Below, in pieces: positions 43,356 through 54,062 of a stretch of DNA of 64,000 nt. This DNA is from an uncultured virus (IMG/VR IMGVR_UViG_3300020049_001346). Lineage: Duplodnaviria; Heunggongvirae; Uroviricota; Caudoviricetes. The translations under genes were made by a program, and so were the position numbers. The stretch lies in IMG/VR virus record IMGVR_UViG_3300020049_001346; one strand, given 5' to 3'. Within the stretch, counting starts at the first letter, position 1. Each line of letters begins with the position of its first letter. The notes under the pieces were generated by a model, which made no database searches, was not told the DNA's origin, and saw nothing but the letters and a program-made list of their open reading frames with translations.

Positions 43356-43588
43356 AATGCTTTTTCGTATGTTAAGTTAAAAATATCTGGTTTGCATGGA
43401 TAAAATTCTCCTTGTACTCCTTTTATTATGAAGTCACCTATTGATGCTTTCATATTACCTTCTAAGGTTTGAATGTATAGCTCCCCATCTATAAATTCAG
43501 CGCTTTTGCAAAAATCTAACATTGGTTCAGTATTTCCATCCCATTGAATTGCTTCAATTACTACTGGTTTCTTTCTGTATAATCCCAT
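43346..43588 (-). CDS. Widespread small phage protein (RKKPVVIEA..TLEG..GEFYPCKPDIF family)
   Basis: Recognisable conserved motifs; function not assigned. Confidence 0.75.
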   Translation of the reverse strand: MGLYRKKPVVIEAIQWDGNTEPMLDFCKSAEFIDGELYIQTLEGNMKASIGDFIIKGVQGEFYPCKPDIFNLTYEKALWK

Positions 43589-45195
43589 TATGCTCGTGTC
43601 ATTGTTATTATTGCGTTAGTACTAAGTATTGTTGTGGCCACACTGACAGCGTTCTTCAGCGCGTTCTTCGTAACCTTCAGCGGGTCTATGATCCCCATGT
43701 CGTACATGTTACCGTACACGTCGTTCTTCACGTCGTAACCAGTGTTAGTGTTTGATGCGCATCCAGTCATGATCTCGTACCCGTCGTTACCTGCGTTCTC
43801 GTGTATCTGCAGCAGAGGTGCCTGAATAGCCCTTGCCATGATCTGCATCGCGACGTACTGCTCTGCACTGATGTCCTCTATCATGTCGTCAGCGTCTACA
43901 ATGATCCTATAGGACTCGTTGAACAGTGCAAGTCCTCCTCCTGGAAGGATTCCCTCCTCCAGTGCAGACCTTACAGCGCATACCGCGTCGTCTACCCTGT
44001 CCTTTCTCTCCTTCTGCTCCAGGTCTGAGTTACCTCCAACGTATATAACAGCGATGCTACCTGTTAAACTAGCGATCCTGCTCTTGATGAACTCCTTGTC
44101 CTGCTTCTTCTGTGCAGCCTCGTGAGCCACCCACAGCTGACTTACCCTGTCGTCTACGTCCTGCTGCTTGCTCTCTGGCTTGATGATGGATGACGAGTCC
44201 CTTCCTATGATGATCCTCTCTGCCCTACCTAAATCCTCGATTGATATCAGGCTAAGGTCGTCTCCTGTGCTCTCCGAGAAGTACTTCGCACCCAAAGACA
44301 GCGCGATGTCTGACATTAGCTCGTTCATCTTGTAACCGAACTCTGGTGGTGCAATGTTACAGAACTTCAGCTTGTTCTTAACCACGTTGACTGCCAGTGT
44401 GTTGATCACGTTCTGGTTGCATGGTCCAATTATGAGTAGCTTCTTGTTCTCCTGTATCACCGTCTTTAGAACCCCCTCTATAGACAAAATGTTGGATATC
44501 TCCTGGTCTGTAACCAGAACTAGCACATCGTCCATGATGCACTCGTCGTTCTTGAAGTCGTTCACGAACATGTTCGAGGTGTAACCCCTTCCGATCTTGA
44601 TTCCGTTTGTGAACTCTGAGTATGTATCCGCTGTCTGCGAGTTCTCGATTGTCACGATCCCATTCTTACCAACCTTCGTGTATGCGTTTGATATGATCTT
44701 ACCTATCTCGTTGTCGTTATTAGCCGATATCGATGCCACGTTGTGAAGCGTCTTACCGCTCACTTTTTTAGAGGATCTCTCCAGGCTGTGGATGATACCG
44801 TTGGAAACGCTGTTGATGTTCTTGATCACCTCCGTCACGTTGTGCTTCTCGTTCAATAGCTCCTGGCCCTGTCTCACGATTGCCTCCGTAAGCACGATTG
44901 CTGTTGTTGTTCCGTCTCCAGCGCTTGTTGCTGTACGATCTGCTGCCTCCTTCATCATCTTAACCGCCAGGTTCTCCACTGGGTCTAGCAAGAAGATTGA
45001 CTTCGCTACCGTTACCCCATCCTTTGTAACTGTGATACCATGTGTGTGGTTCGGTGACTCGATCAGAACCGTACGACCCCTTGGTCCTAGCGTGCTCTTA
45101 ACCGCCTTGGCAATTGTAGTTATGCCTGTAATTAGTTTTGCTCTTCCTTCCTCGTCGAACAGTAGTTCCTTGGGACTGTATCCAAATTCTTCCAT
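43588..45195 (-). CDS. groEL: Chaperonin GroEL (Cpn60)
   Basis: TLGPRGR, VTKDGVTVAK, AGDGTTTA, EEGILPGGG and GIIDPLKV motifs; no GGM tail. Confidence 0.95.
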   Translation of the reverse strand: MEEFGYSPKELLFDEEGRAKLITGITTIAKAVKSTLGPRGRTVLIESPNHTHGITVTKDGVTVAKSIFLLDPVENLAVKMMKEAADRTATSAGDGTTTAIVLTEAIVRQGQELLNEKHNVTEVIKNINSVSNGIIHSLERSSKKVSGKTLHNVASISANNDNEIGKIISNAYTKVGKNGIVTIENSQTADTYSEFTNGIKIGRGYTSNMFVNDFKNDECIMDDVLVLVTDQEISNILSIEGVLKTVIQENKKLLIIGPCNQNVINTLAVNVVKNKLKFCNIAPPEFGYKMNELMSDIALSLGAKYFSESTGDDLSLISIEDLGRAERIIIGRDSSSIIKPESKQQDVDDRVSQLWVAHEAAQKKQDKEFIKSRIASLTGSIAVIYVGGNSDLEQKERKDRVDDAVCAVRSALEEGILPGGGLALFNESYRIIVDADDMIEDISAEQYVAMQIMARAIQAPLLQIHENAGNDGYEIMTGCASNTNTGYDVKNDVYGNMYDMGIIDPLKVTKNALKNAVSVATTILSTNAIITMTRA

Positions 45196-45834: not shown

Positions 45835-46140
45835 AATTTTTTTTACAAAGATACAATAATTTTGTTTTAATAATAACGGGGTTAAAAAAATATGTCATAA
45901 ATTTTTAGGCATTACGTTATATAGTCAATCTGCGTGAGCCGTCCAAAATGGAAACCGATTCTTTTTCGAGGGGTGGGGTACCAAAAGCAAGATTTCCCTC
46001 CAGATTTCTAGGCTTTTCCTGGGGTGCCAGGTGGGTACCTCTCCAGACCACACGTCAACTAGGTGGGTATCCCGCCATGTTGCTCCATGCCGTCTGTCTG
46101 TCGCTTGTTTCGTAGAGTAAACCACATAGATAATGCGGTC

Positions 46141-46471
46141 AATGTAGAATAAATGTAAGGAAATGTAAGCCAAATGTAAAGAAAATGCAGGGCTTACATC
46201 GTGTGAGCCGTTGATATCACTACGATTGTCAATGATAATGTAGAAATGCGCGCTCAACCCCTATATACAGCCTATAGATAATTATTATAATATATATATT
46301 TTTTTCGCTACGAAGAAGGGAGTAAAGTTTACATTCTTACATTTTTTAGGCTAAAGTCAATGATACCAAGTGCTACGGCGATGTAAAACTTTTTTGAACT
46401 TTACATTATTTTGGGCAACTTTACATTCTAGGGGCTTCCCGAGGTTTTGCTTACATTTTAGGGGCTTCCTG
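46141..46471. repeat. Iteron-like AATGTA/TACATT repeat array flanking an AT-rich core (candidate replication origin)
   Basis: AATGTA at 46141, 46152, 46162, 46173 and 46237; TACATT at 46330, 46338, 46402, 46422 and 46452; AT-rich 46262-46305. Confidence 0.6.
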
Positions 46472-46727
46472 GAGGGCATGTTAAACCCAGGGAACACCTA
46501 CTGTGTTATGCATAGTACTATTTTGTGTTCAGATACCCTCACACGAGCAATAAACCAAGTCCCCTCACGCGCGTGTACTTATTATTAAAAAATAGAGAAA
46601 TCTCGTAACTTGCACGTTATCAATCAATTAGTATATTTGTTAAAATTCCACACCTTGTCAGCCCAATAAAACCGAGCCAAATGTTAAATATTTGTTAATT
46701 AATTAGGATTGTAATTGATAGTTGTCG

Positions 46728-46735
46728 TATGTTTG
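46728..46735 (+). promoter_or_regulatory. Early promoter -7 box (TATGTTTG)
   Basis: TAnnTTTG followed by CA at the head of the plus-strand arm; a second box TATATTTG lies at 46632-46639. Confidence 0.6.
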
Positions 46736-46879
46736 CAGTGTTGAAAGGGTAGAAAATTTGTAAAGACCCTAGATGCAAGTCGACAAGACTATAACTGCGG
46801 GTAAGTCTACTCAGGAATAAGCGATATAGATTTCGTGAAGTCCGAAGACCATGGGGGTATCCAAATAGGAACGAGCATG

Positions 46880-46934
46880 AAACGTACATGGATGTGTTAT
46901 CCATGCTGATGAGCCACAGAATGGCGAAACGTTT
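46880..46934 (+). ncRNA. Hammerhead ribozyme, type III (HH1)
   Basis: Stem III AAACGT/ACGTTT, GUA site (cut after 46886), stem I CATGGAT/ATCCATG, CTGATGA 46906-46912, stem II GCCA/TGGC, GAAA 46926-46929. Confidence 0.9.
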
Positions 46935-46947
46935 AATACTATTTATT

Positions 46948-47139
46948 ATGAAATTATTTACATTAAGACTGTCGCATCCTAATTATCAAAATGAAGTAAT
47001 AATCCTTTTTAGAAAGAAGGAGGATGCAATCGCAGAGTTTGAGCACAAAGCCAATCAATTGAAACTAAAAAAGGTGGCATATGACTTTGCTTACCTAGAC
47101 AACATAGAATTGTCTATCATAGAAAAACAGGTTAACTGA
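46948..47139 (+). CDS. First early small ORF (63 aa)
   Basis: ATG 13 nt after HH1; its TGA stop lies within the HH2 core. Confidence 0.6.
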   Translation: MKLFTLRLSHPNYQNEVIILFRKKEDAIAEFEHKANQLKLKKVAYDFAYLDNIELSIIEKQVN

Positions 47140-47179
47140 TGAGGTCTAAGTGACCGAAACGTCGTGAGACGTCTTAACC
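47130..47179 (+). ncRNA. Hammerhead ribozyme, type I (HH2)
   Basis: Stem I GGTTAA/TTAACC, CTGATGA 47136-47142, stem II GGTC/GACC, GAAA, stem III ACGTC/GACGT, GUC site (cut after 47173). Confidence 0.93.
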
Positions 47180-47196
47180 AATTAAATATATTTAAC

Positions 47197-47491
47197 ATGA
47201 AAAAGAACATCCTATTTTGGGTATTGGTAGCGGTGCTATCAATCACAATTCATTTACTAACTCCTAACTGCTACAGATAATGGGACAGAACTTAAAAGAC
47301 ATCGGACTTGCCCTAGTACTATGGGCAGTATTTATAACTTTAATATCTATTATATGAACAAAGAAATCTTATATAGTCTAGAAGGCTATCCAATTAACCC
47401 TAAACTATACGGTCATTGGAACAAGTTAACACAGAGCGAAAAGAATAACTTGTATGCAAGGTACGTATTTCTATGCGAACAAGAGAGGTAG
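47197..47491 (+). CDS. Three coupled micro-ORFs (47197-47280, 27 aa; 47280-47357, 25 aa; 47354-47491, 45 aa)
   Basis: TAATG and ATGA overlaps; first two are single hydrophobic helices; they fill the gap between HH2 and HH3 exactly. Confidence 0.6.
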
Positions 47492-47543
47492 GTTAACTGA
47501 CGAGTCCTGATTGGACGAAACACCCCAAGTGGGTGTCTTAACC
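47491..47543 (+). ncRNA. Hammerhead ribozyme, type I (HH3)
   Basis: Stem I GGTTAA/TTAACC, CTGACGA 47497-47503, stem II GTCC/GGAC, GAAA, stem III ACACCC/GGGTGT, GUC site (cut after 47537). Confidence 0.93.
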
Positions 47544-47559
47544 ATTAAATATATTTAAC

Positions 47560-49609
47560 ATGAAAGATTCATTAGCTTTATTATCCACCATAGACGTGGA
47601 AAGATTTTATGTGTGCTCGGTTTGGGAGCGAGAGGTAACCTTGCAAGGCAAGGCAAGTACAGAACTTATACAATACTGCAAAGGATTAGGTGTTGATGAA
47701 TTTCAAGTGAGTGACCTTGGTCATTTAAAGGCGGAGATTGGTAAACTTAAAATAGTACTAGCGTAATGAAAAAGTCAATCTATCAGCACATCGCTGACAC
47801 GTACAAGGACGAGGTTCCAACATTGGAACAAGTGACCGCATTAATTAAGGAGCATGCTCCAAACATATCGTCGCCGAGTTTAACCTTCGACGAATTAGTA
47901 ACTAACATTTACGAAAACTATACATCATGGATAAAATAGAACAAGCGAAGGCTATACTTAAGGAAGCGGGTTACTACACGGGTAACCTATGGCACATCAA
48001 CGATGTAAAAGAAGACTACGACATTACTGACGATGAGGCACATGATGTGTTATCAAAGGCACTAAACAACGAGGGAACATTTGACCAAATATGGACAGCT
48101 ATTAAATTTTATGCAGATGATACTACAGAAATATAGACGGCAGTTAGGTCATGACTCAATCACGTTGGCACACGGAAGTAAACCCTTCTTTGTGCCATCG
48201 TCATTTGAGCACAAGGATGTGAGTCCTGAACTAGTGGCGATTGAGTTCCCACAGTGGTTCCTAGACAAGCACAAGCAGACCATAGAAGAGATAGAGTTCA
48301 GTACTAACTTATTAATAGAGAGAATATGCGACCAAGGATAACACTAGTTAATCAGACCATCAGGTCAATCAGGGAGCGTGAGCAGAAGTTCACGGCGCTT
48401 GTAAAGTACGAGTGCAAAGAGAACCCACAACTGAAGTGGCACGAAGCCAAGCGAGAGGTAAAGTACAGAATTTTTAATAAGACAATAGGATGGATACAGC
48501 AATAGTAGTTGAGACGGGAGAGAGTGTAGAGATAGTGCACAGAGGTTTTGATATTGTAATAATACAATTCAGTGACGGGACACAGAAACTTGTGAGACCC
48601 GATGAGGTTGGACTAACTAAAAGAAAGAGACCAAAGTTATGGAAGCTATACTAGAGAGAGCCTTCGTGAAGGCGATGGTCAAGGTGATGAGCCTTGAGGA
48701 CGAGTTGAAAGACATTGACAAGGCTATGTATGACGATCACCACCTTGAAATAATCAGGACAAGTATAGAGCGCGACCTAGAGGCGTGGAAATTAATCTTA
48801 AAACTAATTGAGAATGAAAGCAAAGGTAATAGTAAGTAGGGGTGCATATAGCATCGGTCACGATTGGTGTCTAGTCCTAGAGACAAAGAAGCACCACCAA
48901 CGATTCTATTTGGGTCAAGATAACAAGTTCTGTACTAGGGTATTAGGTCTAAGCACATCAGATGTTGTCGCTAGGATAGGCACCCGAGAGATAGACAACG
49001 ACACGAAGGGCAACCGCATATTGGCCAAGTTCATATGCAAACAACTAAACATTAACGGACACAACTTCAAGTGCATCGAGGCGTGGGGTCTGTGTGCACA
49101 ATAACTAAAGACATGACACATTTTAAATCAGACGAGTTAGAGTTCTTCAACAAGTTCACAGACAAGCGGGTTAATGTAGGAGATGGCACTACGACCATAA
49201 GAGTCAAGCCAAAGGAGACACAGCTAGACCTACAGATTGAGGTGGCTAGGAAGACGAGTATTAACATAGTAACGTGTGGAGACTGCGGTAGCACACTACT
49301 ACACAGACAATCGGACGAGACCATAACGTGTCCTGACTGTGGATTTAGTAGTGAGCCTTGCGACTTCCCTAACTTAAACTACTAGAAATGAAAGAAGAGT
49401 ATATCAGAATGCGTAACAGTGGGCAGTATAACATAGAGTGGTTCCACAAGTATTACAGAAGCAAGGGGGGTAGAGACATCCCCCTTCAGGACTTCCACAT
49501 GGTGTTTCAGACGGCTAACCTAGATCAGGTTTTAGATAGAATAGATAAAGAGTATAACCTTACATCATTATATGATGTAAATAATAAACTAATAAAGACA
49601 TGGCAATAA
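47560..49609 (+). CDS. Run of small early hypothetical ORFs (including 47560-47766, 47927-48136, 48639-48839, ~48814-49104, ~49113-49385 Zn-ribbon, 49388-49609)
   Basis: Tightly packed, coupled ORFs; CGDC..CPDC in the ORF ending at 49385. Confidence 0.6.
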
Positions 49610-49902
49610 AGATAACAGACGACTGCATCAACTGTGGACTGTGTGAGCCCGTGTGTCCGAACAACGCGATATACGAGCCTGACACGGATTGGAGATGGAG
49701 CGACGGCACAAGCCTGACGGATGATACACCACAGGCACCACGTTCAAGCGACGTGTTCTACATCGTTGAGGAGAAGTGCACAGAGTGTGTCGGCTTCTAC
49801 GGTGCACCACAGTGTGCGTCAGTGTGCCCATCGGACTGTTGTGTCCCTAGCACACACGAGACAGATTTACTAACTAAAAAGCATAGACTACATGGAAATT
49901 AA
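49600..49902 (+). CDS. 2x[4Fe-4S] ferredoxin (YfhL-like)
   Basis: CINCGLCEPVCP and CTECVG..PQCASVCP cluster motifs. Confidence 0.9.
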   Translation: MAIKITDDCINCGLCEPVCPNNAIYEPDTDWRWSDGTSLTDDTPQAPRSSDVFYIVEEKCTECVGFYGAPQCASVCPSDCCVPSTHETDLLTKKHRLHGN

Positions 49903-50539: not shown

Positions 50540-50611
50540 AGTCAGGTGGCAGTAATTGGTAACTGCGAAGCATTATGCATAGAAATACAGGTTCGAATCC
50601 TGTCCTGACTA
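50540..50611 (+). tRNA. tRNA-like RNA with degenerate anticodon arm
   Basis: Acceptor AGTCAGG/CCTGACT, D arm GCAG-TAATTGGTAA-CTGC, T arm ACAGG-TTCGAAT-CCTGT; no canonical anticodon stem-loop. Confidence 0.65.
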
Positions 50612-52667: not shown

Positions 52668-53240
52668 ATGGAGAAAATTTTTAAAACATTATCAGAGATT
52701 GACATAAAGTCAAAAGTAGAGAAGAAGGGTAGTCAGAACTACCTCAGTTGGGCTAACGCGTGGGGGTTTGCAAAGCAAATGTATCCATCAATACAACGTA
52801 TAGTGTACGAGGATCCGTTGACGGGACTTAACTACCTAAACGATGGTAAGACGGGCTATGTGAAGGTTGGAATTGTAATCGAGGGACTAGAGCACATCGA
52901 CTACCTACCAATCATGAGCCACAACAACAAGTCAATTGGAATAGATAACATAACATCATTCGAGGTGTCAAAGACTATCCAAAGGAGCACTGTAAAGGCG
53001 TTGGCGCTTCACGGACTAGGCCTTCAGATGTGGAGTGGTGAAGACCTAGTGACAACTACAAAGGTAGAGAAGCCTTCAGGCCCTCTAGAGTTGACCATAG
53101 GTGACGCGAATTGGGACAAGGTCATCAAGTACATCAAGGACAACAAGCACCTTGGATTGGCCACGATAGTCAAGAACCTTGAGACGAAGTATAAAATTTC
53201 AACCGTAATCAAAAAAGAACTTGGGAAATATGTTGGATAG
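52668..53240 (+). CDS. Single-strand annealing protein (Sak3/DUF1071-like)
   Basis: VEKKG..YLSWANAW..LPIM..N..IQRSTVKALALHGLGL. Confidence 0.8.
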   Translation: MEKIFKTLSEIDIKSKVEKKGSQNYLSWANAWGFAKQMYPSIQRIVYEDPLTGLNYLNDGKTGYVKVGIVIEGLEHIDYLPIMSHNNKSIGIDNITSFEVSKTIQRSTVKALALHGLGLQMWSGEDLVTTTKVEKPSGPLELTIGDANWDKVIKYIKDNKHLGLATIVKNLETKYKISTVIKKELGKYVG

Positions 53241-53990: not shown

Positions 53991-54062
53991 TGTTGTATAG
54001 TTTAGCGGTAGAATAGGCCTTGTTTAATAGGCTAGACGAGGGTTCGAGTCCCTCTGCAACAT
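53991..54062 (+). tRNA. tRNA-like gene with 8-nt anticodon loop (TGTTTAAT)
   Basis: Acceptor TGTTGTA/TGCAACA, D arm GTTT-AGCGGTA-GAAT, anticodon stem GGCCT/AGGCT, T arm GAGGG-TTCGAGT-CCCTC; -7 box TATATTTG at 53955-53962. Confidence 0.7.

Follow-up and report, generated by a model that had tools for sequence, protein, structure and literature searches.

The window, that is, the whole 64,000-nt stretch of DNA analysed here, covers most of a phage genome. Virion genes occupy its minus strand until position ~45,700, beyond which a plus-strand run of small genes is followed by the genes for the single-strand annealing protein Sak (52668-53240), a primase, and a helicase. A phage-encoded chaperonin of the Cpn60/TCP-1 family is found on the minus strand at 43588-45195, and a 4Fe-4S ferredoxin is encoded on the plus strand at 49600-49902. 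Two tRNA-like genes lie at 50540-50611 and 53991-54062, the former with an anticodon arm that is unusually short when aligned in Rfam. At 45950-46480, the switch of strands takes place across a non-coding region that contains short repeats, both direct and inverted, and has a strong strand skew; it is a possible origin or genome end.

At the BLAST level, the region has its nearest cultured matches in Elemovirus phages of Flavobacterium sp. BAL314 (68 records), and these have in common with the window the stretch of the first ribozyme (HH1) only. The host appears to be Flavobacterium-like. Leaders in the region are free of Shine-Dalgarno sequences, and a TAHHTTTG element is present at the head of the early operon; the promoter consensus and leader determinants of Bacteroidetes are described in the available part of PMC6847099. 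Between this candidate promoter and the HH1 cut, about 240 nt (46640-46886) probably constitute a non-coding leader, which is predicted to come off as a separate RNA via HH1. The features of the locus are collected in Table 1. The 63-aa gene that precedes HH2 belongs to no PHROG or Pfam family, and its position is occupied by other genes in relatives.

Table 1. Features of the early region of the window
Feature	Position	Strand	Remarks
Candidate Bacteroidetes -7 promoter element, TAHHTTTG type	46632..46639	+	Pattern scan; early operon; predicted
Second, weaker -7 promoter candidate	46728-46735		Pattern scan
HH1, type III hammerhead, operon head	46880..46934	+	Predicted cut after 46886
63-aa early gene	46948..47139	+	Stop codon inside HH2 core
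HH2, type I hammerhead, 6-bp stem I	47130..47179	+	Predicted cut after 47173
Predicted 364-nt excised tricistronic mRNA	47174..47537	+	Inferred from the two cut sites
Leader, 23-nt, A/U-rich	47174..47196	+	Without Shine-Dalgarno; A at -3, -12, -13
ORF1, 27-aa hydrophobic peptide	47197..47280	+	Kyte-Doolittle 19-residue window 2.2
ORF2, 25-aa hydrophobic peptide	47280..47357	+	Kyte-Doolittle best 19-residue window 2.4
ORF3, 45-aa soluble protein	47354..47491	+	One predicted helix, residues 27-43
HH3, type I hammerhead, stem I equal to that of HH2	47491..47543	+	Predicted cut after 47537
68-aa gene, first on the RNA released by HH3	47560..47766	+	

Hammerhead ribozymes and their relatives

A scan of both strands over the full 64,000 nt identified three hammerhead cores, all on the plus strand, so that the operon layout is III-I-I. 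Both HH2 and HH3 bear the full core CUGANGA...GAAA...NUH with a GUC triplet. Stem I of HH2 is formed by 47130-35 and 47174-79, with the core starting at 47136, and that of HH3 by 47491-96 and 47538-43, with the core starting at 47497; in each, GTC stands before the cut. Local folding gives a three-stem shape for HH1, HH2, and HH3, and the two latter have type I architecture, with stems II and III closed and stem I open. Exact identity between HH2 and HH3 extends over only 10-11 nt per patch, and neither a terminator-like site nor TAnnTTTG was found at HH2 and HH3.

The Rfam model RF00163 recognises HH3 with 27.5 bits (E 0.001), below its gathering score of 34; HH1 scores 22.4 bits, below the gathering score of 48.5, and HH2 is absent from the Rfam matches at E up to 1. 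The RF00163 model expects a much shorter stem III than the window copies have. For 12 named pairs in 16 hand-picked type I copies from the window and its relatives, pairing is intact in every one of the 191 cells, and changes on both sides occur in 7 of the 12, a number reached by 0 of 500 shuffles; kin sequences may beat shuffles without any structure, and slid controls drop to 19-39%. Judged by the intact consensus and this covariation, HH2 and HH3 are genuine hammerheads, and they are expected to be active. HH1 is matched in 32 viral stretches. No other ribozyme class was detected at gathering score in 20 of the 32 clade loci.

The stem I of HH2 and HH3, together with the GTC cut, recurs in at least 133 stretches of viral contigs, and the same search in cellular genomes returned only 4 matches, all of them in short MAG contigs. 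Another scan, which placed no constraint on stem I (the stem-I-blind set), yielded 163 distinct type I copies (7 of 132 loci were unparsed and left out) with 67 kinds of stem I, which is 6 bp long in 154 of the 163. An unpaired A precedes stem I in 159 of these copies and follows it in 149, which suggests that the flanking A residues make a tertiary contact. In the stem-I-blind set, the first ATG lies at a median of 25 nt from the cut (15-35 nt in 104 of 163), and in the stem-I-selected set, among the matches listed, at a median of 22 nt (within 15-35 nt in 148 of 168). Thus, the constant feature is a ribozyme followed by a short leader and a start codon. No parsed hammerhead was found on the opposite strand in the stem-I-blind set or, among the matches listed, in the stem-I-selected one.

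Phage contigs abound in type I hammerheads with a U-N-N-N-U loop II, a loop that the search pattern prescribed (L143-L274), and some of these copies precede Shine-Dalgarno leaders. In L288/L304/L316/L317 and in L318, a type I copy with one extra U after CUGAUGA is located before ORF1. This extra-U hammerhead exists in two sequence versions with a covarying stem II, and the extra U is probably a tolerated core insertion.

Three overlapping genes between the predicted HH2 and HH3 cuts

Cleavage by HH2 and HH3 would excise a piece of 364 nt, whose 5'-OH and cyclic-phosphate ends, proposed in the sequence-only reading, would follow from hammerhead chemistry. The same reading had placed three coupled micro-ORFs on this piece, and they are indeed there: the frames of 27, 25, and 45 aa are joined by a TAATG overlap (ORF1/ORF2) and an ATGA overlap (ORF2/ORF3), and the last base of the ORF3 stop codon is also the first G of stem I in HH3. 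The leader that precedes ORF1 is nearly duplicated past HH3, at 47538-47559.

Comparison with relatives indicates that ORF1-3 are real genes conserved as coding sequences. Among the fetched loci, ORF1 exists in 7 distinct versions with a pooled pN/pS of 0.63 and ORF2 in 9 versions plus one more with a pooled pN/pS of 0.45 (a weak match, L015, E 0.003, was left out), while two DNA versions of ORF3 give 0.10 on one pair; these pairs lack independence, and their retrieval through protein similarity introduces a bias towards intact frames. ORF3 has, in addition, 7 database homologs of 67-100% identity. No PHROG or Pfam family was found for any of the three. The structure model of ORF3 has a pLDDT of 89; neither the viral nor the PDB library contained a matching fold at E up to 0.001, and the Atlas gave no usable match; a profile search of representatives returned its own small family only.

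That the first two products are membrane micropeptides, as suggested earlier, agrees with their hydropathy, which is high enough to span a membrane and is mostly kept through the substitutions in both ORF1 and ORF2. Other short hydrophobic ORFs occupy this region in relatives. Each of the two peptides probably forms one membrane helix, and, by position and hydropathy, they are most likely single-pass inner-membrane peptides of early host takeover. The further assignment to superinfection exclusion or membrane takeover is a guess. ORF1 was also considered as a lipoprotein, a candidate that was dropped because the cysteine is replaced in 3 of the 7 versions.

As for RNA, a single run held 5% of the sampled words, and its contigs cover only 47766-47869 and 48222-48441, with no joints. 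They lie off the 364-nt piece and hence are silent on a circle either way.

Probable linear messages and proposed recombination within stem I

Perreault 2011 (PMC3088659) described, in the part of the paper available, multiple hammerheads that flank genes or short gene blocks in prophages; these clustered ribozymes cut polycistronic RNAs, with cleavage shown for three tandem arrays, and processing into short mRNAs was proposed, circular or spliced products being named as alternatives that were not detected (data not shown). The locus analysed here is similar in having several hammerheads close together on one strand that flank variable small genes, and the gene content between the ribozymes does vary among relatives. 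It differs from those arrays, as far as the same part of PMC3088659 describes them, in being a Bacteroidetes-type early operon of III-I-I layout, in which stem I is fixed at 6 bp, loop II reads U-N-N-N-U, and the leaders have no Shine-Dalgarno sequence. The ribozymes are not treated as recombination joints in the parts of that paper covered.

We consider it probable (about 0.68) that the early transcript is cut into short linear mRNAs and that the ribozyme repeats also serve as joints for recombination at the DNA level. The early operon would be transcribed as a single long RNA in which HH1, HH2, and HH3, as consensus and covariation suggest, fold locally and each cut in cis. After cutting, the A/U-rich 6-bp stem I would dissociate to leave linear mRNAs of 1-3 genes. 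Each would start with a 5'-OH and a leader of standard type, unstructured and ~23 nt long (22-25 nt) up to the AUG; at its 3' end it would keep both hairpins of the following ribozyme and terminate in a cyclic phosphate. The expression of each gene block would in this way be insulated and set regardless of the upstream sequence, and cutting may bring a gain in stability or translation. Messages with 5'-OH ends resist 5'-end-dependent decay.

Such an arrangement is reminiscent of RiboJ-type insulators, in which, according to the available part of PMC6206723, a self-cleaving RNA just before the start codon standardises the 5' end; those are engineered, single, and leave a stabilising hairpin, whereas here the ribozymes are natural and repeated and leave an unstructured leader. 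The UTR ribozymes of fungal and plant RNA viruses (PMC13725137, available part) are also of type I and precede the start codon, sometimes as tandem pairs enclosing 186-399 nt, but they belong to eukaryotic RNA viruses with cap-independent translation initiation, whereas the present ones belong to a DNA phage.

Cutting might also have the opposite effect and act as a timer, that is, hasten the decay of toxic early messages by severing them from the protected primary 5' end, without boosting expression. This is rather improbable. The ribozymes adjoin the upstream stop codon, with no terminator, as such a timer would have it, and an ORF ends within -6 to +10 of stem I in 248 of 319 ribozymes, though partly by construction, as the motif stops in two frames. 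However, the cut is made at a fixed distance ahead of a good start context, and an engineered 5' ribozyme raised mRNA ~2x and protein 2-10x in E. coli, although that ribozyme leaves a hairpin (PMC6206723, available part).

Regarding stem I, the complementarity between the 5' TTAACC of the 364-nt piece and the GGTTAA of HH3, pointed out in the sequence-only reading, is real, but it arises because HH2 and HH3 have an identical stem I and is not a separate feature. What calls for explanation is the likeness of stem I between neighbours. Of 55 pairs of neighbours in the wider set, 33 are cross-compatible, where chance would give 5.9, and full cross-pairing is absent from the remaining 22. At variable positions, the likeness between neighbours is 0.82 for stem I (expected 0.42), 0.50 for stem II (expected 0.37), and 0.49 for stem III (expected 0.29), the pairs compared not being independent. 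Stem I is, therefore, homogenised above stems II and III, and it must be conceded that selection for cross-pairing at the RNA level predicts the same.

The pattern can be accounted for by recombination at the DNA level. Comparison of relatives shows that the repeated ribozyme-plus-leader unit is a joint for swapping small early genes. In a crossover within a type I hammerhead, the two strands of stem I would come from different parents, the left from one and the right from the other, so that only copies with matching stem I should give working recombinants, while stems II and III would travel mostly as local hairpins. Recombination at a matching stem I would thus explain the complementarity of the ends without an RNA circle. 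It also predicts that copies with a deviating stem I stay by the same upstream gene, and the GTTAAA and GTTATA copies do keep to the same upstream gene in each relative.

Several observations bear on such exchange. Stems II and III occur as few types that are freely combined in the clade, and when 27 clade ribozymes were put through the four-gamete test, stem II against stem III types, three pairs of stem II types passed. The stem III of HH3 differs between the window and L135, though the flanking genes are nearly identical. The ends of one contig (L305 end, L325 start) represent forms without and with a 523-bp two-ribozyme cassette placed between identical 70-nt ribozyme repeats; the shared terminal bases number 127 and 126, as expected if the reads held both forms, but these two haplotypes are taken from assembly ends and could be an assembly artefact. 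The copy in phage elemoF_6-3D (L308:6825-6870) has a chimeric stem II, with the left arm equal to that of elemoA, the right arm equal to that of elemoC, and two mismatches; it is a probable natural recombinant with an impaired ribozyme in a culturable Flavobacterium phage. Many of the exchanges within the clade have their breakpoints at the starts of genes and not at ribozymes, which are hence one of several kinds of joint.

Such a joint has a parallel in the PeSL cassettes of T4-type phages (Arbiol et al. 2010, PMC2839356, available part). There too, a regulatory unit repeated between the genes of a hypervariable early region is a site of recombination, at which chimeric units arise and genes are gained or lost; small circles of DNA with ORFans on them have been shown in that system. 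The PeSL unit consists of a promoter and a terminator over ~100 bp, whereas here it is a ribozyme with a leader and the homology is shorter.

The distribution of type I copies was counted in 26 distinct clade loci with at least 2.5 kb read, after the removal of 3 duplicate loci: 9 loci have none, 7 have one, 9 have two, and 1 has three. Of the 7 lone copies, 6 retain GGTTAA/TTAACC. Within the clade, 5 of 12 neighbouring type I pairs are unable to cross-pair. The genes themselves are not always bracketed by two type I copies: such a bracket is missing around ORF1 in 2 of 7 contexts, around ORF2 in 3 of 10, and around ORF3 in 1 of 4, and all three are jointly bracketed in the window, an identical contig, and L135 only. 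BLAST-level searches revealed no cultured phage with such a bracket; the three Elemovirus regions examined have HH1 and one type I copy, and Cellulophaga phi19:3 and Agrobacterium OLIVR1 have one type I copy each in the stretches examined.

It is very unlikely that the uniform stem I serves trans-cleavage or re-ligation among the fragments, with a 3' ribozyme body acting on other TTAACC-type sites or the pieces being spliced in a new order. Homogenisation of stem I would suit this idea. Each site here, however, is already a complete cis ribozyme, incompatible neighbours are common, and a 6-bp contact offers little to act on, since the type I layout keeps the cut base and stem III on the enzyme strand.

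The question of a circular RNA

The sequence-only reading had proposed that the excised piece refolds a hammerhead across its own ends and circularises as retrozyme-type RNAs do. Animal non-LTR retrozymes (Cervera and de la Pena 2020, PMC7229834; PMC7761336; both as far as available) do resemble the present unit in the matching type I stem I at both ends, the spacing of 150-400 nt (here 364 nt), a GC content below 45%, and 5'-OH and cyclic-phosphate ends. According to the same parts of PMC7229834 and PMC7761336, however, in retrozymes the whole unit is tandemly repeated, non-coding, and highly self-paired, and it forms abundant circles mobilised by reverse transcriptase. The unit under study occurs once in the window, is coding throughout, and is unstructured; repetition is confined to the ribozyme with its leader, so the likening fails on copy number, coding content, and self-pairing. 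Indeed, a BLAST search with the 364-nt query against the window returned the piece itself and the ribozyme/leader repeats only. The piece is 52% paired, with z of -0.37 in linear and -0.43 in circular form (100 shuffles), and 39 family fragments fold with a mean z of +0.10. No reverse transcriptase was found by Pfam among the 32 window proteins scanned, a set that does not include the virion proteins.

Refolding across the ends proved geometrically possible in the folding model, at a cost of ~2 kcal/mol, but the closure is not optimised relative to shuffles. In this model, which leaves out ribosomes and tertiary contacts, the end-to-end hammerhead has P ~0.04 versus ~0.3 for the local cis folds. 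Closure costs 1.9 kcal/mol versus 2.7 +/- 1.8 kcal/mol with a shuffled interior, and over the 39 family fragments of up to 400 nt its mean rank against shuffles is 0.45 +/- 0.05. Once circular, the RNA would re-form the ribozyme with P 0.0005 in the same model, and a circle could persist because it so rarely re-makes its ribozyme.

Two further lines were followed. Rolling-circle translation is ruled out, as the length leaves a remainder of 1 on division by 3 and stops are present in all three frames across the junction; multiples of 3 are not preferred among family fragments either (17 of 61, among the matches listed). A junction-type pattern, in which the start of ORF1 follows a HH3-like stem III, gave 3 matches in metagenome contigs. 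These were rejected as evidence of circles: each has a complete ribozyme with genomic sequence upstream, and the unit is not duplicated internally. The order expected at a circle junction, a HH3-type stem III before ORF1, is present in the linear DNA of L279, L288, and L316-L318, so junction reads would need a DNA control. No report of a circular mRNA from phage hammerheads was found in a literature search that covered titles and the starts of abstracts, most subscription papers being outside its reach.

A functional circular mRNA would be produced if a chimeric hammerhead formed across the ends and the piece were closed by self-ligation or by a host RtcB-type ligase and then translated, stem I being kept uniform for this purpose. 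The topology, the ends, and the size are correct for it; the conserved flanking A residues would remain in the chimera; closure at ~2 kcal/mol would be cheap in the folding model, and the low probability of re-forming the ribozyme may let the circle last; stem I is homogenised within genomes. Furthermore, RtcB circularised 30-80% of animal retrozyme monomers in vitro, self-ligation reaching 1-3% (PMC7229834, available part). Against this stand the closure cost and rank given above, which show no optimisation, and a folding z of about -0.4, like that of shuffles. In relatives, some type I copies stand alone, some neighbours are incompatible, and some contexts of the ORFs are unbracketed; 364 cannot be divided by 3, and every frame stops at or near the junction. 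Circles were sought in comparable arrays by Perreault 2011 and were undetected (data not shown; PMC3088659, available part). Taken together, a functional circular mRNA is improbable, and equally so is the general proposition that, in phages whose type I hammerheads match, early gene blocks give rise to circular mRNAs that are translated, and that the uniformity of stem I is the footprint of selection for them.

It is plausible, though still less likely than not, that circles arise as a minor by-product, at a few percent, by reversal of cleavage or by a host ligase, with no selected role, the linear form being the one that works. The cheap closure would permit this, self-ligation of retrozymes is low yet detectable (PMC7229834, available part), and such a by-product is compatible with linear processing as the best explanation. 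On the other hand, ribosomes should compete with pairing of the ends, given that the start codon is 23 nt from the 5' end and the last stop codon lies on HH3 stem I. If circles were nevertheless the working form, they would be a natural ribozyme-made, protein-coding circular mRNA in bacteria, a major result, and the 364-nt unit would be the bacterial, protein-coding counterpart of retrozyme circles.

Linear processing combined with recombination at the ribozymes remains the reading preferred here. The layout, with its real ribozymes and real micro-genes, is of a kind known since 2011. The point added by the present analysis is that stem I alone, and not stems II and III, is kept uniform within each genome, which recombination inside the ribozymes can explain.
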